This document shows, in pieces, positions 36,478 through 55,600 of a stretch of 63,925 bases of DNA. Source of the DNA: an uncultured Opitutaceae bacterium. GTDB taxonomy: Bacteria > Verrucomicrobiota > Verrucomicrobiia > Opitutales > Opitutaceae. Numbering within the stretch: the stretch's first letter is position 1; the number at the start of each line of letters is the position of its first letter. Location: the NCBI GenBank assembly GCA_964429385.1, contig CAYSBR010000022.1, positions 1-63,925 of the forward strand, read 5' to 3'. The notes beneath the pieces were generated by a model. It saw only the letters and a list, made by a program, of their open reading frames with translations. It searched no databases and was not told the DNA's origin. The translations under genes and the position numbers were made by a program.

Positions 36478-38322
36478 ATGAACGATCTCGATTTTGGTGA
36501 AACCCTCAAAGGCTTCAGCCCCGGCCAGAAAGCTTTCAATCGCTACACGCTGAAGAAAATCCTGGGTCGCGGCGGGATGGGGATCGTGTGGCTGGGGCGG
36601 GACGAGGAGTTGGAGCGCGACGTGGCGCTGAAGTTCCTGCCGGAAGTGGTGGCCTTGGACAAAGAGGCGATCCGCGACCTCAAGCGAGAGACGCGGCGCT
36701 CGCTGGAGCTGACACACCCGCACATCGTGCGGATCTACGACTTTGTGCAGGATGCCCGCATGGCGGCGATCTCGATGGAATACGTGGCCGGGGATACCTT
36801 GGCCTCGCGGAAGGTGGATCACCCGGAAGGCCGGTTTGAAGTGGAGGAGCTGAAAGCATGGACGGGGCAGTTGCTGGAAGCGCTGGCCTACGCGCACGGG
36901 AAGGCGGAAGTGGTGCACCGGGACCTGAAACCGGCGAACCTGATGGTGGACGCACGGGGCGACCTTAAAGTGGCGGACTTCGGGATCGCGGCGAGTGTGA
37001 GCGACTCGGCCTCACGGGTCTCGGCGCAGGCGGGGACGAGCGGGACGCCGGTGTATATGAGCCCGCAGCAGATGATGGGGGAGAAACCGGCGGTGACGGA
37101 TGACATTTATGCGCTGGGGGCGACACTCTACGACCTGCTGACGGGGAAGCCGCCGTTCCACGCGGGAAATATCATTTTGCAGGTGCAGAACAAAGTGCCG
37201 CCGACGCTCACGGAGCGGCGGGCGGAGCTAGGGGTGAAGGCGGGAGCGATTCCGGCGGAGTGGGAAGAGACAATCGTGGCGTGCCTAGCAAAGGAGCCGG
37301 GCGCCCGCCCGCAGAGCGCGGCCGAAATGGCGGAGCGATTGGGGTTAACCACGAAGGATACAAAGAGCGCGAAGCGCATACAAGTTGAAGCAGGAGAATC
37401 GGGGGCCGAAGGCAGGGCGAAGCCGCCGGCTGAGCCGGTTCCCCAAGCCAAAATCGAAAAGCCAAAATCGAAGATTTCACCGCTGGCGCTCGCTGCCGGC
37501 GTGCTGCTGCTTGCGGGGGCGGGCTATTACTTCGGTTATTATGCACCCGCGCAGAAGCGTCAGACTCCGGAGGTGATTGAGCGGGAGAAAATGGAGGTGA
37601 GCGGTGGTCGTGCGGCCTACGATGTGACGCCTGATTTGATCAAGGGCCTCGGCCCCGGCGATGACATCACGCCCGTGCCAGTGGACGAGCGTCATGCGAC
37701 GGATGATGGCGGTCTTTATTATGCCGTGGCCATCAACGACCGCGCGCTCATGGCCCAGCGGCTGGCCGCCGGGGCCAACCCGCTGGAGGGCGGATTCATT
37801 AGCTCCATTTACGGCATCGGCATCGGTGCTCCGCTGCAAGCGGCCTTGCGGGATGGTCGCTTCCTGCTCGTCCGCGAATTGCTGCGGCGCAGCCCCAAGC
37901 CTGACCCGCAGGAGTGGAGGACGGTGGATGGGTACCGGATGAGCTTTGCGACGGCCTGCGGCACCGGCAACTGGGATATGATCCAGTTGTTCCTTGATTT
38001 TCACCCGGTCGAGTGGGAACTCGATGCCTGGCTTGGGCTGCTTGAGACCAAGAAGCCGGAACTGCTTGAGCGCGCTGTGAGGGCAGGCGCCGATCCTAAT
38101 TACCGTGACAATCGTTCAGGTGCGACGCCCCTGCATAAAGCAGCGGCGGATGGGTTTAATGATGCGGCCATGCTTCGCGCATTCATAAACTTGGGCGCGG
38201 ATATTAAAGCGAAAGACAAGAGCGGCAAACTCCCGTTCGACTTGCTGAGCGCCGATGCTCCCGCCGAGATCCGGCGGCTGCTCACACCGGCCGGTGGTCA
38301 AACAATGGGGGCTGGCCGTTAA
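36478..38322 (+). CDS. Hanks-type Ser/Thr protein kinase with TM segment and C-terminal ankyrin repeats (STK1)
   Basis: Kinase subdomains: GRGGMGIVW, VALKFLP, HRDLKPANLM, DFGIA, SPQQ(APE-like); TM ISPLALAAGVLLLAGAGYYF; C-term ANK (GATPLHKAAADGFNDAAMLRAFINLGADIKAKDKSGKLP). Confidence 0.9.
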   Translation: MNDLDFGETLKGFSPGQKAFNRYTLKKILGRGGMGIVWLGRDEELERDVALKFLPEVVALDKEAIRDLKRETRRSLELTHPHIVRIYDFVQDARMAAISMEYVAGDTLASRKVDHPEGRFEVEELKAWTGQLLEALAYAHGKAEVVHRDLKPANLMVDARGDLKVADFGIAASVSDSASRVSAQAGTSGTPVYMSPQQMMGEKPAVTDDIYALGATLYDLLTGKPPFHAGNIILQVQNKVPPTLTERRAELGVKAGAIPAEWEETIVACLAKEPGARPQSAAEMAERLGLTTKDTKSAKRIQVEAGESGAEGRAKPPAEPVPQAKIEKPKSKISPLALAAGVLLLAGAGYYFGYYAPAQKRQTPEVIEREKMEVSGGRAAYDVTPDLIKGLGPGDDITPVPVDERHATDDGGLYYAVAINDRALMAQRLAAGANPLEGGFISSIYGIGIGAPLQAALRDGRFLLVRELLRRSPKPDPQEWRTVDGYRMSFATACGTGNWDMIQLFLDFHPVEWELDAWLGLLETKKPELLERAVRAGADPNYRDNRSGATPLHKAAADGFNDAAMLRAFINLGADIKAKDKSGKLPFDLLSADAPAEIRRLLTPAGGQTMGAGR

Positions 38323-38339
38323 TGCTAGTTTGGATGAAG

Positions 38340-38386
38340 CGCCCGGAATGCCCTTCATCTTCTCCAACCGCCACGCGCGGAGCGCA
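38340..38386. repeat. Truncated copy (loop + right arm only) of the REP/MITE-like element, copy 4
   Basis: cttcatcttctccaaccgccacgcgcggagcgcacggtccac matches loop/right arm of copy 5. Confidence 0.6.
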
Positions 38387-38415
38387 CGGTCCACTTGTTG
38401 AGCAAGGAACAGGGG

Positions 38416-40059
38416 TTATGGTTCCAGCTTCACGCGCCAGGTGCGGGCGCCGAGGCGGAGTTGCTGGCCGGTGGCGAGGGGGGCGATCTCGCCGGGGCGG
38501 AGGGTGAGGCGATCCACTTGCACGGCACTGTTGGCGACAAGGGTCTCGATCCAGAAACAGCCGCGGTAGTGGTGGAAGCGGCCCTGGACTTCGGCCAGGG
38601 TCGGGTCGGAGGTCATTACAATGGCGTTGGAGCGGCTGGTGCCGAAGGTGCCGTCGGTGTGCAGCCAGACGGCGTTGAGCGGCTGGGCCTCCGGGGGGAC
38701 GACCTCGAAGCGCACGGCGCCGCGCAAGAGCGGGGGCGTCGCGGGCGGGCCGGCCCATTGCCGGGCGTTGCTGATCACGGGGTCGCTTTCCACGCCGGGG
38801 GGCACGCGGTCGAAATCCACCTCGATGGCGCCGGCGAGCAGCAGCCGCCCCTGGCGCGGCAGCTGGGTGCCGTTTTCATCGAGCGGCACGCCGTCGAAGA
38901 GGCTGCCGTTGGCGCTGGCGTTGTCGCGGAGGAGGATGCCGTCGGGGGTGATCTCGGCGATGGCGTGGACTTTGCTCACGCGTTTGGTCTTGTCGTCGTT
39001 GGCCGGGTTGCGCGGGAGCAGCCAGGAGACGAAGTCGGCCTCGGCCCGGCCGCGGCCGAGGCTGAAGCGGGGCCGGGCGACGAGGCGGAAGGGCAGCGGA
39101 GAGACGTAGGCGCCGACCGCCTCCAGCGTGCAAAGCCCGGCGGGCTGCACGGTGGCGAGCAGGGCGGAAGGCAGGTGCAGGCTGGAGGCGTGCGTGGCGG
39201 CGCGGAAACCGGAGTCGTGGCGGCTCACCTCGTAGTCGAGATCGAGGGCGATGCGCTGGAAATTCTCCGGCAGGTCGAGGTCGAGCAGGTCGTTGACGGA
39301 CTTGATCGCACCCTTGGCGATGAGATTGCTGATCTGCACATCGCCGTATTCCGCGCCGAGGGCCTGGTTGGCGCCGCCGCCGGTGTTGCTCTGAATATCG
39401 CTGATGTTGATGACGATGTTGGAATTGTCGGGCGCCTTGTAGAGGCGGAGCGGGTGCTGGCCGCGGTAGGCCAGTCGCTGGCCAGCCTGGTCCCAGGCGG
39501 CGGCGATCTGGATGACAAAATGACCGGCGCGCGCAGCCTCGACTTCGAGGAGGAGATCGGTGCGGCTGCCGGCGCCGAGCCGGCGGACGCGGGAGAGGGC
39601 TTCGCCGGCCAGTCCGCGCGAGCTGACATACAGCTCCAGGTTTTCGATGGCGGCGGCGGATTCGTTTTCCGCGCGGAAGACGAGGGTGCCGGCGTGGCCG
39701 GCCACGAGGGCGTGCGGGAGGTTGAGTTCCAGCACGAGCGGGCTCGGGTCGTCGTTGCCGGTTGGTTGCGACGGCGCAGACGCAGGGGGGCGGACGATGG
39801 GCGGCGGCGGAGCCGGGGGCGCTTCAGGGACCGCAGGAGTAGGCGGCGCCGGATGGGCCGGCGTGCTCAGGGTGGCGGGGGGCGGGTTGGCCTCCGCCTC
39901 CGTTTCAGAATGCGGCCGGCTGGAGCTGCGCGACACCGCAGTCGCCTGCAAGGGGGAGGTTTCCTCCACCGGGTCAACCGGGGTGGCGGTGCCGCAGGCC
40001 GGGCAGAAGCGGCTTTTGGGGGTGAGGGGAGTCTGGCAGGCGGGACAGAAGCGTGGCAT
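38416..40059 (-). CDS. Zinc-ribbon - Pro-rich linker - central domain - tandem FHA-domain protein
   Basis: N-term MPRFCPACQTPLTPKSRFCPACG (double Zn ribbon); C-terminal region with two FHA-like modules (FSLGRGRAEADFV...ITPDGILLRDNASANGSLFDGVPL and GTSRSNAIVMTSDP...GCFWIETLVANSAVQVD); alternative start 40083. Confidence 0.65.
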   Translation of the reverse strand: MPRFCPACQTPLTPKSRFCPACGTATPVDPVEETSPLQATAVSRSSSRPHSETEAEANPPPATLSTPAHPAPPTPAVPEAPPAPPPPIVRPPASAPSQPTGNDDPSPLVLELNLPHALVAGHAGTLVFRAENESAAAIENLELYVSSRGLAGEALSRVRRLGAGSRTDLLLEVEAARAGHFVIQIAAAWDQAGQRLAYRGQHPLRLYKAPDNSNIVINISDIQSNTGGGANQALGAEYGDVQISNLIAKGAIKSVNDLLDLDLPENFQRIALDLDYEVSRHDSGFRAATHASSLHLPSALLATVQPAGLCTLEAVGAYVSPLPFRLVARPRFSLGRGRAEADFVSWLLPRNPANDDKTKRVSKVHAIAEITPDGILLRDNASANGSLFDGVPLDENGTQLPRQGRLLLAGAIEVDFDRVPPGVESDPVISNARQWAGPPATPPLLRGAVRFEVVPPEAQPLNAVWLHTDGTFGTSRSNAIVMTSDPTLAEVQGRFHHYRGCFWIETLVANSAVQVDRLTLRPGEIAPLATGQQLRLGARTWRVKLEP

Positions 40060-40146
40060 GGCGGTCTCTCCGGCATAAGCCATACCAGTTGGGGAGAAAA
40101 TTCCAGCATCCTTTCCACCAATGATTTTTGGATTTCGGCTCGCGGT

Positions 40147-40161
40147 TGGCACAGCAATTGC
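40147..40161 (+). promoter_or_regulatory. Sigma-54 promoter, perfect TGGCAC-agcaa-TTGC, ending 12 nt before ATG 40174
   Basis: Exact consensus; implies a leaderless or near-leaderless transcript. Confidence 0.7.
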
Positions 40162-40173
40162 CGATATCCGCCC

Positions 40174-41019
40174 ATGATGATTCCAAATCGCTTTCTTACC
40201 TGCAAGCGGCTGGGGACGGCCGCCGTGGCCCTGTTTTTTTCCTGCCTGCTTGCCGCCCAGGGACCGGAGGATTCCCGCGAAGACCAGCAGGTGCGCGTGC
40301 AGATCACCGAGCTCGGCCTGCTCCGCACGCTCATCCTCATGGCGCCCGATTCGCAGGATCTCGCCGGGCAGGTGCGGCAACAGTTTGTGGACCGCGACTA
40401 TGAGGTTTACACCGACGCCCAGCGCATCTCGGGCCGCGTGACCTCGGCGCAGATGCGCGAGGCGGGCGAGTCGGAAAACGCCGACCTCGTCGTCTATGCG
40501 CGCATCGTCGGCGACCGCCGCCGCAGCAATGCCTCGGGGTTCAAGCTCTATGAGGCGACGGCGGGGGTGCAGGTCTTCAACCGGCTCACCGGCCGCGAGG
40601 TCGTGAGCAAGGAGGTGCGCGTGAGCGGCACCCGCCATCCCGATGAAATCGAGGCCCGGCGCTCGGCACGGGAGAAGGCGATGGAGCGGGCGACGCGCGA
40701 AGCCATCGAGGGCACGCTCGCCACGGCGCACAAGATCCTCGTGCACCATGCCGTCATCGTGAACGTCTTCAGCGAAAGCGGACTGCTCGCCCTCATGGAA
40801 TACATGGGGAAGATGGAAGGCGTCTATCACGTGAAGCGACTGGAGTTCGACCGGCAGACCAACGAGGCGCTCATCGAGATCATCGGCGAGCCGCGCTCGC
40901 AGACCTTCTGGCGCGCCTATCTGGAAAAGCTGCCCAAGACCAAGGTGAACGTGCAGGTGACGCCCAACGACAGCCTGCACAACAAGTATCCCGACTGGTT
41001 CCTGCCGCCCGCGCAGTGA
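40174..41019 (+). CDS. Secreted hypothetical protein (signal peptide MMIPNRFLTCKRLGTAAVALFFSCLLAAQG)
   Basis: In-frame ATG pair at 40174/40177 followed by a canonical signal peptide; 281 aa. Confidence 0.55.
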   Translation: MMIPNRFLTCKRLGTAAVALFFSCLLAAQGPEDSREDQQVRVQITELGLLRTLILMAPDSQDLAGQVRQQFVDRDYEVYTDAQRISGRVTSAQMREAGESENADLVVYARIVGDRRRSNASGFKLYEATAGVQVFNRLTGREVVSKEVRVSGTRHPDEIEARRSAREKAMERATREAIEGTLATAHKILVHHAVIVNVFSESGLLALMEYMGKMEGVYHVKRLEFDRQTNEALIEIIGEPRSQTFWRAYLEKLPKTKVNVQVTPNDSLHNKYPDWFLPPAQ

Positions 41020-41047
41020 ACTCCGTTTCCTTCCCCCTTCTTTCCAC

Positions 41048-41806: not shown

Positions 41807-41843
41807 ACGCATGTTCCTCCGGTCCAAAGGACGGAAGCGCCCG

Positions 41844-42404: not shown

Positions 42405-42434
42405 ACCATCACGACAACAAGCCGCACAGACTGC

Positions 42435-44273
42435 ATGGACGACCTCGACTTCGGCGCCACGATCAAGGGGTTTTCCCCGGGACAGAAGGTTTTCAACCGC
42501 TACACGCTGACGCGCATCTTGGGGCGCGGCGGCATGGGTGTCGTCTGGCTGGCGCGGGACGAGGAACTGGAGCGCAATGTCGCCCTGAAGTTTCTGCCCG
42601 AAGTAGTCGTGCTTGACCGCGAGGCGGTGGACGAACTCAAGCGCGAGACGCGGCGCAATCTGGAGCTGACGCATCCGCACATCGTGCGGATCTACGATTT
42701 TGTGTCGGATGGTCGCGCGGCGGCGATCTCGATGGAGTATGTGGAGGGAGCCTCGCTCTCGGCCCTGAAGGTGGAGCAGCCGGAGAAGGTCTTTCCGGTG
42801 GAGAAACTCCGTCGCTGGGTGGCGCAGGTGGGCGAGGCGCTGGAGTATGCGCACACGCGGGCCAAGGTGGTGCACCGCGACATCAAGCCAGCCAACCTGA
42901 TGATTGACGCGCAGGGCGACGTGAAGGTGACGGACTTCGGGATTGCGCGTTCGATTGCCGACAGCGTCAGCCGCGTCAGCGCGCAACTGGCGGGCAGCAG
43001 CGGGACGCCGGTGTATATGAGCCCGCAGCAGATGATGGGGGAGAACCCGGCGGTGGCGGACGATGTGTATGCCCTGGGGGCGACGCTGTATGAATTGCTG
43101 ACGGGGAAGCCGCCTTTCTACACGGGCAACGTGGTTTTGCAGGTGCAGCACAAGGTGCCGCCGACGCTGGCCGCGCGCCGCGAAGAGCTGGGCCTCAAGG
43201 CCGGGCCGGTGCCGGAGCATTGGGAGAAGACCATCGCCGCGTGTCTGGCGAAGGAGCCGGCGGAGCGGCCGAAAAGCATGGCGGAGGTGGTGCGGTTGCT
43301 TGACGGGCCGGGCCCCGGAGCGGACACGGCGAAGGATCCCTCCGCGCTATTCGAGGAGGTTTTTGGAAAGGCGCCTTTTACCAAGCTCTTTGATGAGGTT
43401 CCCGGATCATCACCAGTCGGCGGGTGTGAACGCGGGACCGATCTGCACAGTGAACTGAGCCTGACGGCGGACGAGCTGGCGAAGGGTGGTGAGCGCCACG
43501 TCCACTTTCCGCGGGCGGGTCAGACGGTCCGGCTCGTATTGACGATCCCCCCGCAATCGCGGGCAGGGCAGAAACTGCGCATCCGGGGACAGGGTGGGCC
43601 GGGGGTGAATGGTGGCGAGGCGGGGGATTTATATATCGTCCTGCAACTGGCCGCCGAGCCGGCGGTGCCGCCCTCTGGTCGGCGGGGGTTGGCTGCCTCT
43701 GTTCCGCGGTTGCTCGCCGCCTTGGTCGGCTCGGCGATCTTGCTGGGCGTGGCGATTCGCTGGCTTCTGGGGGTGTGGAGCAACGAATTGGCGTGGGACT
43801 GGCGTTGGTATGATTACTCCACCTTGCTGGGCTGGAGCATAATCACCGCGCTTTTCGGAGGCTGGGCAACCTCAGGCCGGCTGGGCCGGGGATGCTGGAC
43901 GATCTTTGCCGCGGGCGTGGGGCTGACGGGTATCCTGTATATGGAGACGGGGGAATTGCTTTTGTATGGCGGCTCGTATGATAGCGCGGCCCTGGCCTTC
44001 AATCTCACGGGCGCATCGGTGGCGGGCATGATCCTGGGCGGGGTGGGCGGTTTCGCTCTGAGCCGGGTCGCGGGCCTGCGGCCAAGGCTGGGGCTGGAAA
44101 TATTCTGGGGGATCGTGGGTGGAGTGATCGTAACCGCGGGCGCACTGGTCGCCCAGCCGCCCCGTTTTTCGGATTTTGATTTCAGCCTCTTCTCCTGGTG
44201 CGTGATCGGCGGGCTCGGCTGGCTGCAGGCCCTCCGCTTGATGCTCGTGCGCGCACCGGCTCCGTCCGCTTAA
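42435..44273 (+). CDS. Ser/Thr protein kinase with DnaJ C-terminal-domain-like segment and ~8-TM C-terminal region (STK2)
   Basis: Kinase head ~85% identical to STK1/3/4; middle GQKLRIRGQGGPGVNGGEAGDLYIVLQ resembles DnaJ CTD; C-terminus with Gly-rich TM helices. Confidence 0.9.
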   Translation: MDDLDFGATIKGFSPGQKVFNRYTLTRILGRGGMGVVWLARDEELERNVALKFLPEVVVLDREAVDELKRETRRNLELTHPHIVRIYDFVSDGRAAAISMEYVEGASLSALKVEQPEKVFPVEKLRRWVAQVGEALEYAHTRAKVVHRDIKPANLMIDAQGDVKVTDFGIARSIADSVSRVSAQLAGSSGTPVYMSPQQMMGENPAVADDVYALGATLYELLTGKPPFYTGNVVLQVQHKVPPTLAARREELGLKAGPVPEHWEKTIAACLAKEPAERPKSMAEVVRLLDGPGPGADTAKDPSALFEEVFGKAPFTKLFDEVPGSSPVGGCERGTDLHSELSLTADELAKGGERHVHFPRAGQTVRLVLTIPPQSRAGQKLRIRGQGGPGVNGGEAGDLYIVLQLAAEPAVPPSGRRGLAASVPRLLAALVGSAILLGVAIRWLLGVWSNELAWDWRWYDYSTLLGWSIITALFGGWATSGRLGRGCWTIFAAGVGLTGILYMETGELLLYGGSYDSAALAFNLTGASVAGMILGGVGGFALSRVAGLRPRLGLEIFWGIVGGVIVTAGALVAQPPRFSDFDFSLFSWCVIGGLGWLQALRLMLVRAPAPSA

Positions 44274-44479: not shown

Positions 44480-46138
44480 TCACCGCAGAGCGGCTTTCAC
44501 GCTGGCGGCGGCGAGCACCGGGTCGTCGGTCTCCATGGCGAGGCGCTGGATGACGTTGCGGAGTTCGCGGACGTTGCCGGGCCAGCGGTGTTTTTGCAGG
44601 GCGGCGAGGGCGTCGGGGGCGAAGCGGATGGCGGCGAGTCCGTTCTCGGCGCAGAACTGGTCGAGGAAGTGGCGGGCGAGGAGGGGGATGTCGCCGGGGT
44701 GCTCGCGCAGCGGGGGCACGGCGACGGTGGCGACTTCGAGGCGGTAGAGCAGATCTTCGCGGAAGTTGCCGGCTTTCACCTCGGCGCGCAGGTCGCGGTT
44801 GGTGGCGGCGAGGATGCGCACGTCCACCTTGGTCACGCGTTCGCTGCCGAGACGTTCGACTTCGCCGGATTCAAGGGCGCGCAGGAGTTTGGACTGGACG
44901 GGGAGAGGCAGTTCGCCGACTTCGTCGAGAAAGAGCGTGCCGCCGTGCGCGAGCTGGAACTTGCCCTGATGGTCGCTCTTCGCGTCGGTGAACGCGCCTT
45001 TCACATGGCCGAAGAGTTCGCTCTCCATGAGCGGGGCGGGAATGGCGGCGCAGTTGACCTTCACGAAGCGTTGCTTCGCGCGCGGGCTGTGGTCGTGAAG
45101 GAACTGGGCGACGACTTCCTTGCCGCTGCCGGTCTCGCCGGTGATGAGGGCGGTGGCCTTGGTGCGGGCGATGCGTTCAAGGCGCGTGCGCAGCGCGGCG
45201 AGCACGGGGCTGTCGCCGAGGAGGCCGGAGGCCGCGGCGGTGCGCTTGCGCAGGGTGTCGTTTTCTCGGCGGAGGGTGGTGAGCTCGCGGTTGCGCTGGC
45301 GGCCGCGGGGCCAGAGGCGCAGTGCGGCGTTGAGGAGGAGGCGGTCGGCGGCGGAGAACTCCTCCCAGCCGGCGGCGCGCAGGAGGACGACGACGGCGGC
45401 GCCGTCGCCGGTCGCGGTGGGCAGGGGGCAGGCGAGGAAATGCCAGTCGCCGAGCTTTTGCTGGAAGCGCGCGAGGTCGCGGGCGGTGTAGGTGGCGGCT
45501 TCGGGGAGGTGCCGGAATTTGTCGAGCAGGTAGGGCGCGAACTTCGGCACGCCTTTCACCTTCTCGGCCGCGGCGCTGAACTGGAGCTGGTCGTCGGGGG
45601 AATAATACTGGGCGACGGCGGCGCGCACGCCTTCGAGGAGCAGGTCGAGCAGGAGCGGTTCGGCGTCCTCGACGGGCTCGCCCTCGGTCACGCGGAAGCA
45701 GAGGTGGTAGAGCGCGGCGAGGTGGCGTTCCTGCCGGGGGTCGGGCAGGGCGGGGCGGGCGTGCCGCGTTTCGAGCAGGGCCTTTTCATCGTCGGGCTCG
45801 GGGTGAAGTCCGGGGGTGACGGGGCGGACAAAGCCGGCGGCGAACTCCAGTTCGACGGTGCCGATCCGGATGCGGTCGCCGGGTTGCAGGACGGCTTCGC
45901 GTCGCGGGGCGCCGTTGACCTGCACGCCGTTGCGGCTGCGGAGGTCGCGCAGCAGGAAGCCGCTGTCGGCCGGCATGATCTCGGCGTGGCGGCGGGAGAC
46001 GGAGGGATCGTCGAGCACGATCGCGTTGTCGGAAGCGCGGCCGATGTCCGTGGCGGTGGCAGGGGCGAGGGCAAAGTTCGCGACCGGCCGGCCGTGGCGG
46101 AGCAATACCAGCGTGGGATTTTGCAGAGCGCGCAGCAT
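44480..46138 (-). CDS. Sigma-54-dependent transcriptional activator (bEBP) with N-terminal FHA domain in place of a receiver domain
   Basis: FHA ([34 protein letters not shown]...[10 protein letters not shown]), central AAA+ sigma54-interaction domain ([18 protein letters not shown]-like [15 protein letters not shown]), C-terminal Fis-type HTH ([14 protein letters not shown]). Confidence 0.9.
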
Positions 46139-46291: not shown

Positions 46292-46306
46292 TGGCACGGA
46301 CTTTGC
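46292..46306 (+). promoter_or_regulatory. Sigma-54 promoter, perfect TGGCAC-ggact-TTGC, ~60 bp upstream of the lipoprotein gene heading the 46366..55873 gene string
   Basis: Exact consensus; divergent from the FHA-bEBP gene. Confidence 0.8.
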
Positions 46307-46365: not shown

Positions 46366-46899
46366 ATGAATATCCGAATCCTCACCCCGTTTGTGTTCGG
46401 CCTGGCGGCGCTGCTGCTGGCCGGCTGTGAAACCACCCAAGGCCCGTCGCCTGCGCTCAACAACCAGCCGGCCGTGCAGACGGGCAAGCGGCTCGACCCC
46501 GCGCCGGTGTCCCAGTCCTTTGCCGGCAAGAAGGATGTGTTCCAGGGAGCGGAATATGATCCCGGCGTGGGCGTGCCGCTCGATGGCGCGCGGCAGATCC
46601 GCCTGAGCCCGGGCCAGATCATGGAGGTTTACCGCGGCAGCTTCGCGCCCGGCGACGGGCAGCGCGAGATGGCTTTCTATTTGCCGGTCGAGGCGCGGTC
46701 GGTGGTGCAACTGGTCGTGGAGACCCGCGGGTTCACCAAGACCTATTTCCTGCGCGCGCTCGGCCCGGGCAACACCGTGGGCGGCGTGGTGGAGCGCCGC
46801 TGGCTCAACTCAGAAGGTTACGATCCACGCAACGCGGCGGACGAGGCGCGCATCCAGGCGGCCGTCCGCGCCGCTCCCTACCTGATCAACGTTTACTGA
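46366..46899 (+). CDS. Lipoprotein (lipobox LLAGC), hypothetical
   Basis: [21 protein letters not shown]... signal peptidase II motif. Confidence 0.6.
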
Positions 46900-47138: not shown

Positions 47139-47174
47139 ACCGCGCGCACACCCCTCACCGAGGAGCATATCACC

Positions 47175-48731
47175 ATGGGATTCTACAACCAACGCTGCCC
47201 GAACTGCGGCAAGGCCGTCTCGAAGGAAGCCGAATTTTGCAATGGCTGCGGCTGCCCGACCGCCAGTGCCTGGTCCAGTTGCCACCGCTGCGGCTCGGCC
47301 GTCGGCGCGGAGTCGAAGTTCTGCTGGAAGTGCGGCACCGAGCAGGATCCCGCCAAGCGCCAGCAGTTTTATGGCGATCGCTGGCAGCGTTCGCCGGAGG
47401 ACTTCGCCGTGCGGGTGGAGCTGAAGACGCCCGCCGCCGTGCTGCACCGCGGCCTGCAGGTGGACGATGGCACGATCGCGCTGGTGTTTCAGAATGGAAA
47501 ATTCCAGGGCCTGCTGGAGGCCGGCTACCATTCCTTCGACAATTTCTTCTCGCGGCTGCTCGGCTTCGACAAGGGCAAGGAGGCGCATGCCGTGCTCATC
47601 GACACGCGCGCGGCCGAGGTGGATTTCATGCTGGAGGACATCCGGCTGAGGAACCAGATCCCGGTGGATGCGCGGTTGCGGCTGCTCTTCCAGGTGCGCG
47701 AGCCCCGGCTTTTCGCCGAGCGCGTGCTCGATGGCGCGGGCGACTTTCAGACCAGCGACCTGACCGGCCGTTTCCAGGGCGAGGTGCGCGCCGCGGTGCA
47801 GGCCGTGGCGCAGGAGCGCACGCTGGACGAGGTGCTGCTTGCCGCCACCGCCCGCGAATTGCTGGAGCGCGATCTCATGGCGCGGCTGGAGCCGGCGCTG
47901 GCGCCCTTCGGCCTCGTGATCGAGGGCGTGCGGCTGGCTGAGTTCGGCGGCCCGGCCGTGGCCGAGATGCGCGCCAAGCTCGGGGAGATCGACCGGCTCA
48001 ACCGTGAGCTGGAGGCGAACCGCCGCCTGCAGGATGCGGTGCGCGCCGGCAAGATCGACGCCTATCGCGACGAGCAGCAGCTCAAGGATGCCTATGACCG
48101 CGTCACGCATGAATACGGGTTGAACACCGTGGCCCGCGAGGAGGACCGGAAGCGCTTTGTGCAGGTGCTGGAGCAGCAGACACAGGTCGAGGGCCTGCGG
48201 CTGGACTACGAGGCGCGCCGGGCCGAGATTCTCAACCGGCTGGATGAGCAGAAGCTGCGGCACCAATCGGAAATCGCCGATGCGGTGCATGGCGTGGAGC
48301 TGCGCAAGGTCGAGTTTGCCGAGGACATGCGCCAGCAGCGCGAGCGGTTCGGCACCGGGCAGGAGCAGCAGGTGACGCAGGCGAAGACGGATCTTGAGGT
48401 CGCGCGGCAGGGCGTCGAGGCGCTGAAGCTGGTGAAGCAGGCGAAATTCGAGGCGAAGAAAACCGAGGATGAGCACGAACTGGCGATGGAGGCGCAGCGC
48501 CTGCAGCTGCGCGGCAGTGCCGACATCAAGGCGCTGCTTGCCACGCTCGACGGCGAGAAGGCCGACCGCATCCTCAAGCTCGCCGAGCTGGAGATGCGCA
48601 AGGGGCTGGATGTCGAGCAGGCGCTGGCTCTGGTCGTCGAGAAATCCCCCGAGATCGCCCCGGCCGTGGCCGAGGCGATGCGGGCACGCTATGCCCGGCA
48701 GGGTGAGGCGGGCAATCCGGGCGGCGCCTGA
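47175..48731 (+). CDS. Zinc-ribbon - SPFH/band-7 (flotillin-like) - long coiled-coil protein
   Basis: N-term multiple CxxC (CPNCGKAV...CNGCGC...CHRCGSAV...CWKCGTE); SPFH-like core (GTIALVFQNGKFQGLLEAGYHSF...); ~250-aa EA/Q-rich coiled coil like flotillin. Confidence 0.6.
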   Translation: MGFYNQRCPNCGKAVSKEAEFCNGCGCPTASAWSSCHRCGSAVGAESKFCWKCGTEQDPAKRQQFYGDRWQRSPEDFAVRVELKTPAAVLHRGLQVDDGTIALVFQNGKFQGLLEAGYHSFDNFFSRLLGFDKGKEAHAVLIDTRAAEVDFMLEDIRLRNQIPVDARLRLLFQVREPRLFAERVLDGAGDFQTSDLTGRFQGEVRAAVQAVAQERTLDEVLLAATARELLERDLMARLEPALAPFGLVIEGVRLAEFGGPAVAEMRAKLGEIDRLNRELEANRRLQDAVRAGKIDAYRDEQQLKDAYDRVTHEYGLNTVAREEDRKRFVQVLEQQTQVEGLRLDYEARRAEILNRLDEQKLRHQSEIADAVHGVELRKVEFAEDMRQQRERFGTGQEQQVTQAKTDLEVARQGVEALKLVKQAKFEAKKTEDEHELAMEAQRLQLRGSADIKALLATLDGEKADRILKLAELEMRKGLDVEQALALVVEKSPEIAPAVAEAMRARYARQGEAGNPGGA

Positions 48732-48742
48732 GGCGGAATTTC

Positions 48743-51364
48743 ATGGAAGATCTCGATCTAGGCGCGACGTTGCGGGGATTCACCCCCGGGCAAAAAGTAT
48801 TCAACCGCTACAAGCTGACGCGGATCCTGGGCCGCGGCGGCATGGGCGTCGTCTGGCTGGCGCGGGATGAGGAGCTGGAGCGCGACGTGGCGTTGAAATT
48901 CCTGCCGGAGATCGTGGCGCTCGACCCCGAGGCGCTGGCCGATCTCAAGCGGGAGACCCGGCGCAACCTGGAGCTGACACATCCGCACATCGTGCGGATC
49001 TACGATTTTGTGTCGGATGGCCGCACGGCGGCGATCTCGATGGAATACGTCAACGGCGCATCGCTGTCGGCGCTCAAGCTGGAGCGGCCGGGCCGGGTGT
49101 TTGATCCGGCCGAATTGAAGCCCTGGGTGGAGCAGCTGTGCACGGCGCTGACCTATGCGCATACGCGGGCGAAGATCGTGCACCGCGATCTGAAGCCGGC
49201 GAACCTCATGGTGACGACGGAGGGCGAGCTGAAGATCACCGATTTCGGCATCGCGCGCGGTATCTCCGACAGTGTCAGCCGCGTCAGCGCGCAGCTGACC
49301 GGCAGCAGCGGGACGCCGGTTTATATGAGCCCGCAGCAGATGATGGGGGACAAGCCGGCGGTGGCGGACGATGTGTATGCGGTGGGCGCGACGCTGTATG
49401 AACTGCTGACCGGAAAGCCGCCTTTTTACTCCGGCAACATCATCCTGCAGGTGCAGAACAAGGCCCCCGATCCCATCAATGCGCGTCGGGGCGAGCACGG
49501 CATCACGGGAGCGCCGGTGCCGCGCGCCTGGGAGGAAACCATCGCGGCCTGTCTGGCGAAGGAGCCGGGTGAACGGCCCGCGAGCATGCAGGAACTGGCC
49601 GCGCGCCTGATGGAGAAATCCGGGGCTACCGGTCCGGCGGTCTCCGTGGGGGCGCCGTCCGCGCCGGTCGCAGCTCCGCCGAAACTGGAGACGCCGCTTC
49701 CGCCGAAGACACAGGGAGGGGATGGTATTTCCGGCGTGCGCCGCTGGCTGCTGGCTCCGTTGCTGGCGTCGTTGTTGCCGGCGCTGGCCGGAGTGATGTT
49801 CCTGATCACATGGCGGGGCACGGGGGGCTATCTCCTGTATTGGCCGCAGCTGCTGCGCGAAGTGGGAGTGGTGTTTTTGGCGGGGGTTCTTTTCGCCTAT
49901 GCGGCGTTTGTGGCGGTGCTCGGCGTGCGGCGTCTTTTCCAGGGCCGGGTGCGGCCGTTTTTGGTGGGGGGCGGCGCCGTGCTGGGCGGGTTGAGCGCGG
50001 CGGGGTGGGTTTTCCTGCTCGCCGGCAATCGGGCGCAATGGCTGGCGGACACAGTCGGACACGTCCTGTTTCGGGAGGAAATCGTCCTGGGCGGGCTGTT
50101 CGGAATCCTGACCGGTGCGGTCAGCGGCTTAATTCTGAAGCGAGTGGCGTTTGGTGTGCCGGCCGGCCGGCCCTGGTTGCTGGCGGGCGGCATTGCCGGC
50201 GGGGTTTTCGCCGGCATGGCGGGCTTTGGTTTTCTGTTGCCGCACCAGTTCAATCGGACGCTGCAGGACGAAAGCAGCCGGCAGGTGCAGGCCTGGGAAG
50301 AGACCGAGCGGAGCACGCGCGAGGCGGCGGAGCTGGAGGAGAAGCGCCGGGCGCAGCAGCATGCGCTGGTGCTGGAGGCGGCCCGGCAGCAGACGGCGGC
50401 GCAGCGCGCCGTGCGCGAGCAGGAGGTGCTCGGGCTGATCCGCGAGGCGCACCGCATGGTCTTTGACCGGGCGCCCAGTCAGGAGGTCATCACTCATTTT
50501 ACCGGATTGATGCTGGAGGATCCCAGCTGGGATGCGGCGCGGCTGCGGCAGGAACTGCGGTCCACGCCGGCGGGGCGCGATGGCGGCCGGTTGCTGGTGC
50601 CCGAGGAATTCCCCACGATCTCCGCGGCGGTGGAGGCGGCCCTGCCGGGCAACGCGGTGCATGTCGCACCGGGCACTTACCGGGAGAAGATCCGCATCGA
50701 GCAGGCCATCCGCCTCATTGGCGCGGGCCGCGATCGCGTGACGGTCGAGGTGCCGGCCGATCGCAACGCCTTGCAGATTATAAAGGCCGATGGCGTGGTG
50801 GTGCGCGGTTTCACCTTCCGCCACACCTCCACGGCCGATACCGAGCGGCGTTCCTACCTGGTCAGCTTCGAGACGAGCCGGGTGGATTTCGAGGACAACG
50901 CCGTGCTCCAGGGCAACGGGGCGGGCATCGGGCTTGGCACGGATTCCAAGGTGAACATCCGGCGCACGCTCGTGCGCGGCCACCGCTGGGCGGCGATTTC
51001 GGTGCTGGAGAATGCCAGCGGCCTGATTGCCGACAGTGTGATTGAGAACAGCCAGCTCGGCCTTTCCGTGCGCCACACGGTGCGCGCGCTGGAAGTCACC
51101 GGCAGCCAGTTTTCCGGCAATCAATGGCAGGGCCTCTGGCTGGCGGAGGGGGACAATATCACGCTGACGGACAACCGTATCTCCGGCAACGGCACCCCGG
51201 GGTCGAACTACGGCGGCCTGGGGGTCGGCAAGGGCCGGCCGGTGCTGCAGGGCAACGTGTCCCGCGACAACATCGGTCCGGGCATCTGGTGGCAGGAAAC
51301 GGCTCAGCCGGTCATCCGCTCCGGCAACCTCAACGACGGCACGGCGCTGGCGGTGACGCAGTAG
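48743..51364 (+). CDS. Ser/Thr protein kinase with multi-TM region, coiled coil, DUF4214-like segment and C-terminal right-handed parallel beta-helix repeats (STK3)
   Basis: Kinase head as other STKs; 6+ TM helices (aa ~330-540); C-term repeats ...NAVLQGNGAGIGLGTDSKVNIRRTLVRGHRWAAISVLENASGLIADSVIENSQLGLSV... typical PbH1. Confidence 0.9.
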   Translation: MEDLDLGATLRGFTPGQKVFNRYKLTRILGRGGMGVVWLARDEELERDVALKFLPEIVALDPEALADLKRETRRNLELTHPHIVRIYDFVSDGRTAAISMEYVNGASLSALKLERPGRVFDPAELKPWVEQLCTALTYAHTRAKIVHRDLKPANLMVTTEGELKITDFGIARGISDSVSRVSAQLTGSSGTPVYMSPQQMMGDKPAVADDVYAVGATLYELLTGKPPFYSGNIILQVQNKAPDPINARRGEHGITGAPVPRAWEETIAACLAKEPGERPASMQELAARLMEKSGATGPAVSVGAPSAPVAAPPKLETPLPPKTQGGDGISGVRRWLLAPLLASLLPALAGVMFLITWRGTGGYLLYWPQLLREVGVVFLAGVLFAYAAFVAVLGVRRLFQGRVRPFLVGGGAVLGGLSAAGWVFLLAGNRAQWLADTVGHVLFREEIVLGGLFGILTGAVSGLILKRVAFGVPAGRPWLLAGGIAGGVFAGMAGFGFLLPHQFNRTLQDESSRQVQAWEETERSTREAAELEEKRRAQQHALVLEAARQQTAAQRAVREQEVLGLIREAHRMVFDRAPSQEVITHFTGLMLEDPSWDAARLRQELRSTPAGRDGGRLLVPEEFPTISAAVEAALPGNAVHVAPGTYREKIRIEQAIRLIGAGRDRVTVEVPADRNALQIIKADGVVVRGFTFRHTSTADTERRSYLVSFETSRVDFEDNAVLQGNGAGIGLGTDSKVNIRRTLVRGHRWAAISVLENASGLIADSVIENSQLGLSVRHTVRALEVTGSQFSGNQWQGLWLAEGDNITLTDNRISGNGTPGSNYGGLGVGKGRPVLQGNVSRDNIGPGIWWQETAQPVIRSGNLNDGTALAVTQ

Positions 51365-51420
51365 GCGCAGCATGATCACAGCGGCAAAAAATCCCCCGCG
51401 CGCAGGCGCGTAAAACTTCC

Positions 51421-52236
51421 ATGAATACGCCGGGTAGCACGCTTTTCGAATGGACCGCCTTTTCCGACCTGGGGAAGCGGCGCAAGAACAACGAGGATGC
51501 GTGGGCGGCGTGGGCGCTCGGGGAGATCGTGGCCTGGATGCCGGCCGCGCCGCAGGTCTGGCCTGCCGCCGGTTTTTTGCTGGTGGTGAGCGATGGCATG
51601 GGCGGCGCGCTGGCCGGCGAGGTGGCGAGTGCGTTCTGCGCCAGCCGGATTGCCCGGGATTTGCATGTCCGGCGGAAGGAGCCGGATCGGGAAAAGGCCA
51701 TGCGCGAAGCATTTCTGGCCACGCATGAGGCGCTGATCGCGGAGGCGAGTGCCGATCCCACCCAGCATGGCATGGGAGCGACTCTGACCGTCCTGTGGCT
51801 GCTGGCGGACGGCGAGCTGATCTTCGGCCATATCGGGGACAGTCGTCTCTATGCGCGGCAGGACGGGGCGTGGCGGCTTCTGAGCGAGGATCAAAACGTG
51901 GGCGCCGGCATGATCCGGCGGGGCGAGATGACGGCGGCGGAGGTCAACCGGTTGCGTTATCGCTCGATGCTGGAGCAGGTGATGGGCGGCACCGGCGTGC
52001 CGTTATCGCCGCAGATCGGCCGCGGACGCTGGCAGCCGGGGGCGGCCTTTGCCCTTTGCTCGGACGGGTTGCACGGTCCTTTGGAACAGGGGTTGGAGGC
52101 GCGCTGGGAAACGGCCTGCTCCCGTGAGTCGCTGGAGGCGGGCGCCCGCGGGCTGGTGGACGAGGCGAACGAGGTGGGCGGTCCCGATAATATCACCGTG
52201 TTGCTGGCACGCTTCATGCCGGAAGCCCGGTTATGA
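51421..52236 (+). CDS. PP2C-family Ser/Thr protein phosphatase
   Basis: SDLGKRRKNNEDAW, VSDGMGGALAGEVAS, GHIGDSRLY, DNITVLLARF motifs (PPM metal-binding Asp residues). Confidence 0.85.
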   Translation: MNTPGSTLFEWTAFSDLGKRRKNNEDAWAAWALGEIVAWMPAAPQVWPAAGFLLVVSDGMGGALAGEVASAFCASRIARDLHVRRKEPDREKAMREAFLATHEALIAEASADPTQHGMGATLTVLWLLADGELIFGHIGDSRLYARQDGAWRLLSEDQNVGAGMIRRGEMTAAEVNRLRYRSMLEQVMGGTGVPLSPQIGRGRWQPGAAFALCSDGLHGPLEQGLEARWETACSRESLEAGARGLVDEANEVGGPDNITVLLARFMPEARL

Positions 52237-52610
52237 AAAACGACACTCTGCCCCGCGAACATCCGGCCGGCTCCGACTGGGAGCGGTTCCTGCGCGAGCG
52301 CAGTGCGCTGGGGTTGCCGGAGCTTGATCTGGCGATGCTCGGTCCGGGCGACCGTCTCGTGGTCGAGACCCTGCACACGCGCTACGGTTTTGAATGGAGC
52401 GAAGCCGACCGGGTGGAATTGACGACGAACCGCGCCGACCGCCCGAGAGGGCCGGTGCGTATTCAAGGGTGCGCATTTGGCCGCTCCAGCAGCATCAAGC
52501 CGCGGCATCTTTTTTGTGGCGGCAACCTGGAGTATCTTTCCGACAACGGGCGCCTAGTCCACCGCACCACGGCCATCCTCTCTCTCGTCCTGCTGCGCCG
52601 CAGCCGATGA
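52233..52610 (+). CDS. Small hypothetical protein translationally coupled between PP2C and STK4
   Basis: ATGA overlaps at both ends (52233-52236 and 52607-52610); 125 aa; no known domain. Confidence 0.4.
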   Translation: MKNDTLPREHPAGSDWERFLRERSALGLPELDLAMLGPGDRLVVETLHTRYGFEWSEADRVELTTNRADRPRGPVRIQGCAFGRSSSIKPRHLFCGGNLEYLSDNGRLVHRTTAILSLVLLRRSR

Positions 52611-52642
52611 ACCGAGAAAAACCACCGCCTCTCATCCCGCAC

Positions 52643-55600
52643 ATGGACGATCTCGATCTCGGCGTCACCCTCAAGGGCTTCAGTCCCGGCCAGGTGGTTT
52701 TCAAACGCTTCACGCTTCAGCGCATTCTCGGTCGCGGGGGCATGGGCGTGGTGTGGCTGGCGCGGGATGAGGATCTGGAGCGCAACGTGGCGCTGAAGTT
52801 CCTGCCCGAGGTCGTGGCGCTCGATCGGGAGTCCGTGGCCGAGCTTAAACGCGAGACCCGGCGGAATCTCGACCTCACGCACCCGCACATCGTGCGCATT
52901 TACGATTTCATGCAGGATGCCGTCGCCGCGGCGATCTCAATGGAGTATGTCAACGGAGCTTCGCTCTCGGCATTGAAGGTGGATCAGGCCGCCGGCTTTT
53001 TTCCGCTGGCCGATGTGGTGCGGTGGGCGACCCAGCTCTGCGAGGCGCTGAGTTATGCGCATGGTTCGGCGAGGGTCGTGCATCGCGACCTCAAGCCCGC
53101 CAACCTCATGATTGATGCCGCCGGGGATCTGAAGGTCACGGATTTCGGCATTGCCTGCAGCATTGCGGACAGCGTCTCGCGGGTCTCGAAAGACATCGGC
53201 TCCTCCGGCACGCCGCTCTACATGTCGCCGCAGCAGATGATGGGCGAGCGCCCTACGCCGGCGGATGACATCTATTCACTGGGCGCCACGCTCTACGAAT
53301 TACTGGCGGGGAAACCGCCGTTCTACACGGGTAACATCATCCTGCAGGTGCAGAGCAAGACTCCGCCTTCGCTGGCCGAGCGTCGGCGGGAGTTGCAATT
53401 GCAAGCCGGGGAGGTGATCCCGGCCGAGTGGGAGATGGTGCTGGCCGCCTGTCTGGCCAAGGACCCGGCGGCGCGCCCGCCCTCCATCGCCGCGGTGGCG
53501 GCGCGCTTGAATCTGGCGGGCTCCTTTACGGCCTTTGTTCCCGCCGCGCCGGTGGCGTCTGCGGTCCCGCCCGAGCATCCGGTGGCGATCGCCGATGCGG
53601 CGCCGGTCAAGACGGCTGCGCCCGTGGCGGCGACGTCCGCACCGCGCCGGCCCAAGGGCGTGGTTTTCTGGGCCGGTCTGGCGGCGGGCATCCTCGTCGT
53701 TGCCGGGGCGGCCTACTGGCTCGGTGACGGCCCCAATCGTCTCAAGGCGGCGCAACGCATGAAGACGGCGCAGCAAGCGCTCTTCGCCGCGGATTGGCCC
53801 GCCGCCCTTATGGCCCTGCGCGATGCGGCATCACTGCGCCCGACGGATGCTGAATATCGCCGTGAGTTTGACGAGGCCCAGCGTCGTTGGGTCGAAATGG
53901 TGGAGCGGGAAATCCGCGACCTGGCGCCGCGGGCGGCGCATGACCGGCTGGTCAGCCGGGCCGAGGCCGCCATCGCTCTCGTCGAGCCGTACGCCGAAAC
54001 CTTTCGCCGGATGAGCACCCAGGCCGCGCACGCTGCGCGCGCCCTGGTGCAGAAGGCGGTGGACGAGGCGCGGGCATTGGGCGAGGAGTGGGAGCATGAC
54101 GCCGCCCTGGCGCGCCTGGACGAAGTGCGGGCTCATGCCGCCCTGCTGCCGGGTTTTGCCGATATTGAGCAGGGGTTGCGGCGGGATCGCGTGCGGGGTG
54201 GGATCGCCCAGGCGTGGGAGCAGGTGTATGAATGGAAATTTGCCGAGGCTTATGCGACGCTGGAGCCACTTCGCGCGGATGCCGCTCTCGCGGGGGATGA
54301 GTATGCCACCGTCTGGCAACAGGCCAGGGAGGTGGAGGTATTGGCCCGACTGGAAGAGGTGGAGCTGCTGGCCGGGTCACATCGCTACGGCGAGGCCCTG
54401 ATTGTGCTGACGCAGCTGCGGGCAGGAGATATTCTCCTGCACGAAGTGGAACGTAGCACGGCGTCGGTCAAGGCACTCGCCCAGGCTTTCAGTGTGGACC
54501 GGTTGTCGCGCGCCCTGATCGCGGGGCAGGCCGCCGAGGTGGAGGCGGCGTTGCAGGATTATGCGCGCTTCATCGAATCCCGTTTCGCGGTGACCGGGGC
54601 GGAGTTGACCGGCAGCCGGGATCTCCAGACTTTCCTGCGTTTCCTGGAAGAATTGCGCATGCGGCCGAAGGCCGGCGAGCCGCGGACGGATGGCCGGGAT
54701 ATCGCGCTGGTGTCGGCGGTGCGCGCGCGGTTTGCCGATGACGGAGCGGTGGCGCAATTTCTGCGCGAGGAGTTGTCCGGTTGGAGCCAAGTGGAGGAGC
54801 AGGCGGGCCGTCCGGGGCTGGCGCTTTATTTGCAAGCGGAGGCCGTTCGCGAAGGCGCCCCGGCGGATGCGGCGCGTGAAAACCGGTTGCGGGCGGCGCT
54901 CGCGGCCGATGTGGGCCTGCGGCTTTCCTGGGCGGCGGCCGACATCGAAGGCAAGGCCGCGGGTCCGTTGCGCACCGATGTCATCAAAGTCCTGCAGACA
55001 CGGGTGGAGCAGCGCCTCGCCCCGATCGCCCGGTTTGTATCCGCCAGCGACGGGCCGCGCACGTTGATGATCGCGACGGCGTTAAGCGGGCCGGCGGAGT
55101 CCGACAAACCCACGCGCCAACAGCGCACGGTGCGATACCAAAGCGGCACGCGGAATGTGACGAATCCCGATTATCAACAGCTTCAGGCGCAGTTGCGCTC
55201 CGCCGAGGACGAGGTGGCCCGGATGCAGAACGGCCTCGCGGCCGTGCGGGCGGAGGCCCAGCGGCAGGCGCAGCAGGCGGCGAACAGCGGCAATACCAAC
55301 TCGGCCATGGCGGCTTCGCTGTCGGGCGGCATTGGGATTACTCTGGCCCAGAACAATCTCAACCGGGCGGTCAACCACCGGAACGCGGTGCGCAATAATC
55401 TGCGCGACACCTCACGGACCCTGAGTGAGCCGACCTATGCCGACGAGCCTTACGATGTGGTCACCCATAATGTCACGTATTCCGCCGCGCTGACGGCCAT
55501 GCCGCAGGGCGCCCGCAGTCCCGCCCGGTGGACCGCGCAATTCGCGCACCAGACCACCGAGATCACAGGCAACGCCGCGCGCGGCGTTCCGGTGCAGGCG

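Follow-up and report, generated by a model that had tools for sequence, protein, structure and literature searches.

Receptor Ser/Thr kinases of the Hanks type, such as PknB, Stk1 and StkP, have an N-terminal cytoplasmic kinase domain followed by a juxtamembrane linker, a transmembrane (TM) helix and a variable extracytoplasmic sensor, and are present in one or two copies. In the actinobacterial cluster the genes are ordered fhaA-fhaB-pstP-(rodA-pbpA)-pknA-pknB. In Myxococcus xanthus, FHA-domain enhancer-binding proteins and a Ser/Thr kinase network were reportedly described by Jelsbak, Givskov and Kaiser in PNAS in 2005. The locus considered here lies in a 63,925-nt stretch of DNA (the window; GC ~66%) from an uncultured Opitutaceae bacterium (contig CAYSBR010000022.1 of assembly GCA_964429385.1) and comprises an island with four kinase genes, STK1 to STK4, whose N-terminal parts (heads) resemble one another and whose C-terminal parts (tails) do not (Table 1). 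A reading made from the letters alone (the sequence-only reading) had attributed the resemblance to recent duplication or gene conversion. The comparisons below suggest that the four are paralogues of long standing, belonging to a receptor Ser/Thr kinase family of the PknB-like (Hanks) type that has expanded in Opitutaceae.

A Pkinase domain was found in all four genes (158-167 bits against a Pfam gathering score of 31.7; E=1e-46 to 1e-49), and the catalytic motifs GRGGMG, VALK, E71, HRDLKPAN and DFG are invariant among them. A scan of one genome per species returned 302 relatives, nearly all from Opitutaceae (Lacunisphaera, Opitutus, Didemnitutus) and a few from other Verrucomicrobiota. From 65 retrieved loci, totalling 1.07 Mb, 126 distinct kinases belonging to 25 genomes besides that of the window were extracted as a family set. 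GxGxxG and DFG are present in 126/126 of these and HRD in 122/126. Up to 17 family kinases were counted per genome in the retrieved fragments alone, and the true number is hence at least 17. A protein database of 5.8 billion entries yielded at least 1424 matches to the heads at E<=1e-60, all bearing generic names only. Literature searches for kinase expansions in Opitutaceae or Verrucomicrobia returned nothing relevant to the kinase family.

On motif content, the four genes encode Hanks-type Ser/Thr kinases in which the catalytic motifs are intact and one defining motif is altered. The Glu of the APE motif, which is normally salt-bridged to an Arg of subdomain XI (the E208-R280 pair of PKA), is replaced by Gln in all four (SPQQ), in 120/126 relatives and in 117/120 top database matches; the partner Arg (R278) is still present. 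The best match of the head in the PDB is Mycobacterium tuberculosis PknB (E=6e-43, residues 19-284 aligned), in which the corresponding stretch is GTAQYLSPEQ, against GTPVYMSPQQ in the family. Because PknB already reads SPEQ, the unusual part of SPQQ is the change from Glu to Gln only, and the sequence-only reading, which had singled out the whole motif, holds for that residue. The kinase domain is preceded by a conserved 22-residue peptide (pattern MDDLDLGATIKGF.PGQ, consensus MDDLDLGATIKGFSPGQKVFNRY), in which Thr9 is kept by 98% of members and Gly7, Gly16 and Gln17 by 97%.

The region that can be aligned among the four genes comprises the first ~288 codons and ends directly after kinase subdomain XI, beyond which the genes diverge completely, as had been noted from the letters. 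The heads share 67-76% of their amino acids and 68-78% of their nucleotides, so that the description of the first ~270 codons as near-identical in protein was overstated. Pairwise alignment with dN/dS had been named beforehand as the comparison that would decide on recent duplication or conversion, and it returned saturated synonymous divergence (dS) between the window heads (0.66-1.31 by NG86; 1.9-12.7 by maximum likelihood). Orthologues from other genera are no further away from their window genes (dS 0.82-1.15). The closest relatives of the heads were found elsewhere (STK2 82.6%, STK3 80.6%, STK4 83.0% and STK1 78.8% identity), the window paralogues reaching at most 76.5%. Orthologues were recognised for STK2 (L001_10001, head 82.6% and tail 41% identical; L053_8221), STK3 (L002_2791 and L003_7396, head ~80%, tail 51%) and STK4 (L003_14268 and L002_12274, head 82-83%, tail 60%). 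A neighbour-joining (NJ) tree placed the four heads in four separate clades, with bootstrap values of 87% (STK2), 96% (STK3), 100% (STK4) and 97% (STK1) for the orthologue clades and 0% for any pairing of window paralogues. In quartets built with orthologues from two genomes, sites grouping orthologues outnumbered those grouping paralogues (57-84 vs 13-32) in the four pairs left when STK1-STK2 and STK2-STK3 are set aside. Synonymous divergence as large as that to orthologues, the greater closeness of the orthologues and the clade bootstraps together refute recent duplication and homogenisation of whole heads.

The resemblance at the nucleotide level was compared with a null in which the protein sequences were fixed and synonymous codons were redrawn from the heads' own usage (GC content at third positions, GC3, 0.84). 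The simulated nucleotide identity was 0.68-0.72, against 0.68-0.78 observed. Identity between STK4 and the other three heads lay at the random-codon expectation, and identical codons among STK1, STK2 and STK3 were in modest excess (0.60-0.66 vs 0.51 expected). Amino-acid conservation and GC3-rich codon usage account for almost all of the nucleotide identity of the heads.

Long identical runs are nevertheless present at the genes named in the sequence-only reading, which had quoted a 38-mer (exact in STK2 and STK3) and a 41-mer (exact in STK1 and in STK2; STK3 differs at 1 position). Neither string was found in shuffled sequences or, within 1 mismatch, among the relatives in the 65 loci. Only two runs exceeded the codon-resampling null, one of 47 nt between STK1 and STK2 and one of 41 nt between STK2 and STK3. 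The long runs fall on HPHIVRIYDF and GTPVYMSPQQMMGE, the two peptide motifs of strongest conservation, in which Met, Gln and Pro codons abound and the scope for synonymous change is small.

A longer tract of ~140 nt, spanning the activation loop to alpha-F, was located in STK2 and STK3. The two genes diverge by 8.5% within it and by 25.7% outside it, whereas each differs from its own orthologues by 20-24% both inside and outside (Fisher P 0.003 and 0.008). Sliding identity between STK2 and STK3 reaches 93% near alignment nt 510-630; there, either gene matches its own orthologue at only 76-82%. Two features inside the tract, a one-codon CTG insertion and AGC at two Ser codons, are common to STK2 and the STK3 clade as a whole; the orthologues of STK2 have no insertion, and TCG at the Ser codons. 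A few codons beyond, STK3 reads TAT/AGC/GGG like STK1 and STK2, its orthologues reading TAC/TCG/GGC. A bounded tract of low divergence is thus found together with shared rare changes, and these point to mosaic conversion in tracts of ~40-140 nt among STK1, STK2 and STK3 that was neither recent nor extensive. The proposal of gene conversion between recombining repeats of ~800 bp survives for such short tracts and fails for homogenisation of the 800-bp heads. Elsewhere in the family recent gene conversion is clear, with 100% identity over ~360 nt between two kinases of the CAYWTK genome (L012:10001 and L015:10001; 77-92% over the rest of the head) and over ~240 nt between two of the Lacunisphaera genome JAQSCO (L059:2313 and L059:4815); taken together, the heads of these two pairs are 77-93% identical elsewhere. 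STK1 was also considered as a chimera of recombining kinase heads; this was rejected, the sliding identity having no clear switch point.

The region beyond the head evolves two to three times faster than the head (dN/dS 0.27-0.45 vs 0.10-0.16). Pfam identified Ank repeats in the tail of STK1, a DnaJ_C fragment in STK2 (43446-43661, residues 338-409; also within the STK2 orthologues) and a Beta_helix in STK3, in agreement with the modules named in the sequence-only reading. The eight and six TM helices given there for STK2 and STK3 became ~5 hydrophobic segments each in a hydropathy scan, and DUF4214 in STK3 had no Pfam match at E<=1. The 750-aa tail described for STK4 is a long Pfam-less region after one TM helix, for which the term helical comes only from a single-sequence AlphaFold model of low confidence (all-helix; pLDDT 46, the model's own confidence score) that was not used for a fold search. 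Among 79 tails of the family, PEGA (41), FGE-sulfatase (29), CarboxypepD_reg (29), DUF2846 (10) and Beta_helix (8) were the most common domains and Sel1 (5), TonB_C (5), LysM (3), DnaJ_C (3) and Ank (1) were rarer. FGE-sulfatase domains, which form the end of many family tails, are frequent targets of diversity-generating retroelements.

Because homologous tails are also present in the orthologues of STK2, STK3 and STK4, these three genes inherited head and tail as a unit. The situation of STK1 is different. Its linker and TM helix (LGLTTKDTKS...GYYFGxYAPxQ) are homologous to those of PEGA- and FGE-type members until ~75 residues past the head, and its ankyrin ectodomain is unique among the 126 kinases, the nearest relatives being two non-kinase proteins of Candidatus Didemnitutus (P0121 and P0122; 47% identity). 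P0122 consists of a J-like N-terminus, a TM helix and then the STK1-type Ank module. STK1 is therefore a genuine ectodomain swap, the only demonstrable one among the four, and since its linker and TM helix are of the family type and its ectodomain foreign, the exchange point lies after the TM helix and not at the kinase boundary. The polymorphic-tail organisation envisaged by the sequence-only reading, with one head and different C-terminal modules, is present throughout the family, and among the four window genes the swapping of tails is demonstrable for STK1 only. A pair of kinases in the JAYUGX genome has heads that are 91% identical and tails without similarity. Chaperone-like pieces recur in the module pool, as the J-like N-terminus of P0122 and the DnaJ_C fragment of STK2.

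The promoter regions of the kinase operons were found to share an element. The window contains three exact matches to the sigma-54 core TGGCAC-N5-TTGC where 0.21 would be expected, and 0/100 shuffles reached three. All three (TGGCACGAGATTTGC, TGGCACAGCAATTGC and TGGCACGGACTTTGC) are on the + strand, upstream of the first gene of a kinase-containing + operon, and have the -24 TGGCAC, the -12 TTGC and the 5-nt gap of sigma-54-dependent promoters. When 2 mismatches were allowed, the pattern was not enriched in the window (36 vs 28.7 expected); enrichment is confined to the exact core. The related loci contain 41 exact cores, 19 of which lie ahead of a family kinase at a distance of no more than 200 nt, the remainder being mostly ahead of homologues of the lipoprotein, orf281 or FHA-protease genes. 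The same core is upstream of the orf281 homologues in L044, L046, L053 and L054, and in 9 further locus records the lipoprotein homologue has an exact core ahead of it (the identical 15-mer in 7); with L001 and L003 overlapping, these records amount to 8 separate genomic sites. Among 120 kinases scanned, a core with <=1 mismatch was present upstream in 43, compared with 5/120 on the control strand. A scan of the island for sigma-70 promoters and terminators gave 0 promoters and terminators at about background. From this pattern evidence, the island operons look sigma-54 controlled. A further element upstream of the FHA-protease gene, TGGCACGTATCCTGCC, is weak on its own and is a tentative sigma-54 site; the FHA-protease homologues in L006 and L011 have exact cores upstream. 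A survey of sigma-54 regulons mentions Opitutia, the class containing Opitutaceae, for motility only.

Besides the kinases, the island encodes three FHA proteins, one of them an FHA-sigma-54 activator, and one PP2C phosphatase, and most of the genes that are not kinases are found again next to family kinases in 10-14 retrieved loci (at least 10 for the FHA-protease). The activator contains Sigma54_activat (8.5e-68, 227.7 bits), AAA_lid_14 and FHA (2e-19) domains. Canonical phospho-threonine (pThr)-binding residues are present in its FHA domain and in that of the Zn-ribbon-FHA protein (GR...SxxH...NG). No C-terminal helix-turn-helix (HTH) domain was found in the activator, which stops at the AAA lid (NCBIfam alignments end at ~381 of 463 model positions), and its loop reads GAFTDA where GAFTGA is expected. 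About 200 residues between its FHA and AAA+ domains have no domain match. For the FHA-protease, identity with the type VI secretion proteins TagH/Fha and GltG was considered and rejected, the matches being far below cut-off.

The genomes CALKAB and JAHCLN show conserved gene order, and the remainder of the window consists of housekeeping genes. In the CALKAB and JAHCLN islands an extra divergent kinase (L001:16735, L002:562; ~60% identical), which keeps the canonical Glu (..PEQLLGE) and is absent from the window, lies between the Zn-ribbon-SPFH gene and STK3. In both genomes (L001, L053) the FHA-protease gene adjoins the Zn-ribbon-FHA gene; STK1 intervenes in the window. On CALKAB contig 16 (L029), a lone STK1-like kinase (L029_10001) stands between the epimerase gene and the orf122/TPR-histidine-kinase genes, the island being on a different contig; the window regions compared are 33368-38322 and 55874-58070. 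The Zn-ribbon-FHA gene and orf281 are divergently arranged, and two longer open reading frames (ORFs) there, 38395-41019 (+, 874 aa) and 38416-41259 (-, 947 aa), were rejected as over-extensions of real genes. An apparent 400-nt gap between the PP2C gene and STK4 is filled by orf125, the ATG of which overlaps the PP2C stop codon. Outside the island, long ORFs occupy both strands at 14217-19358 (-; 1229 and 480 aa) and 14283-20120 (+; 1945 aa); a Pfam scan of the two minus-strand candidates gave no match.

Table 1. Coordinates of the island genes, sigma-54 cores and shared tracts in the window
Feature	Position	Strand	Details
FHA-like, TM and trypsin-like protease (FHA-protease)	35011..36309	-	432 aa, ATG at 36309; Yop-YscD_cpl/FHA-like 9-90, Trypsin_2 212-387
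Tentative sigma-54-like -24/-12 element TGGCACGTATCCTGCC	36335..36350	-	2 mismatches
Sigma-54 core P1 TGGCACGAGATTTGC	36414..36428	+	exact; 49 nt before STK1 ATG
STK1	36478..38322	+	Pkinase 1.5e-46; head 36478-37341, linker and TM to ~37570, ankyrin ectodomain 37573-38319
Zn-ribbon-FHA protein	38416..40110	-	~564 aa; Pfam Zn_Ribbon_1 and FHA; tblastn matches in 14 loci, best spans 440-565 aa
Sigma-54 core P2 TGGCACAGCAATTGC	40147..40161	+	exact; heads orf281-orf252-orf197-STK2
orf281	40174..41019	+	secreted, signal-peptide-like N-terminus; in 13 loci; no Pfam match
orf252	41048-41806	+	tblastn matches in 13 loci; no Pfam/NCBIfam match; precedes STK2
orf197	41811-42404	+	tblastn matches in 4 loci; no Pfam/NCBIfam match; precedes STK2
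STK2	42435..44273	+	kinase head, DnaJ_C fragment, then ~5 hydrophobic segments
41-nt identical run	STK2 42672..42712 = STK3 48980-49020	+	HPHIVRIYDF motif; null P=0.002; Sawyer-type P=0.016
STK2/STK3 conversion tract (putative)	STK2 42957..43097, STK3 49265-49405	+	~140 nt; activation loop to alpha-F
47-nt identical run	STK2 42999-43045 = STK1 37039-37085	+	lies within the STK2 side of the tract above; null P<0.001; Sawyer-type P=0.008
FHA-sigma-54 enhancer-binding protein (putative activator)	44480..46138	-	~552 aa from Met 46138 (ORF to 46360); 12 loci
Sigma-54 core P3 TGGCACGGACTTTGC	46292..46306	+	exact; heads lipoprotein, Zn-ribbon-SPFH, STK3, PP2C, orf125, STK4, orf122
Lipoprotein	46366..46899	+	177 aa, LAGC lipobox; 11 loci
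Zn-ribbon-SPFH/Band 7 protein	47175..48731	+	74-87% identical in 10 loci
STK3	48743..51364	+	kinase head, ~5 hydrophobic segments, coiled region, then right-handed beta-helix
PP2C-type Ser/Thr phosphatase	51421..52236	+	PP2C_2 3e-17; 14 loci
orf125	52233..52610	+	125 aa; codon-periodic conservation; 11 loci; no Pfam match
STK4	52643..55873	+	kinase head, one TM, then ~720-aa tail without Pfam match
orf122	55874..56242	+	begins directly after STK4 stop; one homologue, L029

Two opposite explanations of the head resemblance were weighed. It is very improbable that the heads are alike through recent duplication or concerted evolution continuing across the whole 800-bp repeat. The two runs that beat the codon-resampling null (P<=0.002), the codon identity excess in STK1, STK2 and STK3 and the long 100%-identical tracts in other genomes of the family would all be expected of such a process, as would the near parity of STK2-STK3 sites that group paralogues (25-35) with those that group orthologues (34-36). 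However, saturated dS (>1.9 by maximum likelihood), the random-codon identity of STK4, orthologues in other genera that are closer than paralogues and the divergence of STK2 from STK3 outside the ~140-nt tract all run counter to it. The converse, that there was no conversion and that the runs arose from invariant motifs and a strong GC3 preference, perhaps helped by selection for optimal codons where a residue is critical, is unlikely. It would fit the position of the runs on the two most conserved motifs, the closeness of overall nucleotide identity to the simulated value and a Sawyer-type permutation test whose P values are borderline after Bonferroni correction. It does not fit the insertion and the two AGC codons that STK2 shares with the STK3 clade, which weigh against it because a change from TCG to AGC needs several substitutions, nor the TAT/AGC/GGG codons of STK3, the lack of matches to the quoted strings in the related loci and the low divergence of the tract relative to that from orthologues.

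An explanation of another kind sees in the array a diversifying system for defence or conflict, either of PD-T4-6/Stk2-like antiphage kinases or a polymorphic-toxin-like locus with effector tails. The PADLOC models PD-T4-6 and mad6 match the heads (E 1e-64 to 1e-72), NCBIfam MAD6 and PglW give weak matches, and the tails are highly variable. The matches, however, are confined to the generic kinase domain (MAD6 146 bits vs a cut-off of 460), and the tail domains (PEGA, FGE-sulfatase, Sel1, LysM, TonB_C, beta-helix) are binding modules of the envelope or periplasm and not toxins. Immunity-like and mobile-element genes are absent, the island is syntenic across genera and set among housekeeping genes, and its other proteins match only the RT-Protease (protease) and RtcR (AAA+) models, with no defence-specific components. 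Neither a PD-T4-6/MADS antiphage kinase nor a polymorphic toxin system could be recognised by its defining features, and a defence function is held to be highly unlikely.

The explanation that probably accounts best for the whole is an ancient, expanded receptor-kinase family with conserved heads, short conversions and diversifying tails, which would act in an FHA/PP2C/sigma-54 circuit. The heads are held alike by strong purifying selection and patched now and then by short-tract conversion between neighbouring copies. The tail of each kinase may sense its own envelope or periplasmic cue, and the near-equivalent heads would phosphorylate a common set of partners. The resulting phospho-threonines could be read by the FHA-protease, the Zn-ribbon-FHA protein and the FHA-sigma-54 activator, and the single PP2C phosphatase would reset the system. 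The activator is predicted to drive the sigma-54 promoters of the kinase operons, which would close a feedback loop.

A bolder form of this proposal, which is rather doubtful, is that Opitutaceae possess a pThr hub of many sensors and one output, i.e., a self-amplifying, PP2C-resettable, envelope-sensing sigma-54 regulon that is undescribed in any phylum. Dozens of receptor kinases would then keep their heads interchangeable through selection and conversion, all addressing the same FHA readers. The principal reader would be the FHA-sigma-54 activator without a DNA-binding domain, switching on the kinase operons, and SPQQ and the conserved N-terminal peptide with Thr9 would be family-specific docking and regulatory features.

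Several points weigh against the proposed family history and circuit. The collections searched were without the window's own genome, so the paralogue comparison is that of the four window genes; the orthologue comparisons were built on metagenome-assembled genomes, and the tree is by NJ only. The boundaries of the 140-nt tract were set after inspection, and the Sawyer-type P values of 0.008 (STK1-STK2) and 0.016 (STK2-STK3) are uncorrected, becoming borderline after correction for six pairs. The circuit is read from gene content and motifs, and both the kinase targets and the pairing of activator with promoter are predictions. The FHA-like domain of the protease is without the canonical Arg, and for an HTH-less activator with a GAFTDA loop both activity and targets are putative and unproven. 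Several sigma-54 cores lie 7-30 nt from the annotated ATG, so that either the leaders are very short or the start codons are mis-set.

Since recent duplication or conversion is wrong for the window, the plain kinase-family reading is an ordinary one. The wider significance would lie in a large unnamed family, restricted to Verrucomicrobiota and marked by the Glu-to-Gln change in the APE motif and the conserved N-terminal peptide, and in the linkage of Hanks kinases, FHA readers, PP2C and putative sigma-54 promoters in a conserved island of an under-studied phylum. The predicted kinase-to-sigma-54 feedback circuit is directly testable in cultured Opitutaceae. The heads also provide an example of how long identical runs in GC-rich genomes can come mostly from invariant peptides and codon bias.

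Compared with polymorphic toxin/Rhs loci, the STKs similarly combine a conserved N-terminal module with unrelated C-terminal modules in several copies per genome; in the STKs, however, the conserved part is an enzyme and not a trafficking domain, the tails are of sensor type, small ORFs in an immunity-like pattern are absent, and the copies are of old date, with orthologues in other genera. The architecture of the STKs is that of PknB, Stk1 and StkP, with which they also share S-P at the P+1 loop. They differ in having Gln for the APE Glu, an extra 22-residue N-terminal peptide with a near-invariant Thr9 and at least 17 closely related copies in one genome, and in lacking a PASTA match in any tail; the PASTA-kinase model NF033483 gave 217-234 bits against a cut-off of 450 for the two kinases scanned, STK2 and STK4, which places them outside that group.

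Like the actinobacterial fha-pstP-pkn cluster, the island brings together one PP2C, several FHA proteins and several Hanks kinases in one locus. It differs from that cluster in that cell-wall synthesis genes are absent, the FHA partners are a protease, a Zn-ribbon protein and a sigma-54 activator, and the genes are organised behind sigma-54 promoter cores; the FHA-protease has a weak NCBIfam match to actinobacterial FhaB/FipA (E=1e-5, 26 bits vs a cut-off of 125). With Myxococcus xanthus the island shares the fusion of FHA to a sigma-54 AAA+ domain in a host with a large kinase repertoire, and such a fusion implies Ser/Thr-kinase input into sigma-54 transcription. Unlike the Myxococcus proteins, the island activator belongs to the phylum Verrucomicrobiota, is without a DNA-binding domain and has a GAFTDA loop, and its predicted sigma-54 targets would be the kinase operons themselves, family-wide.

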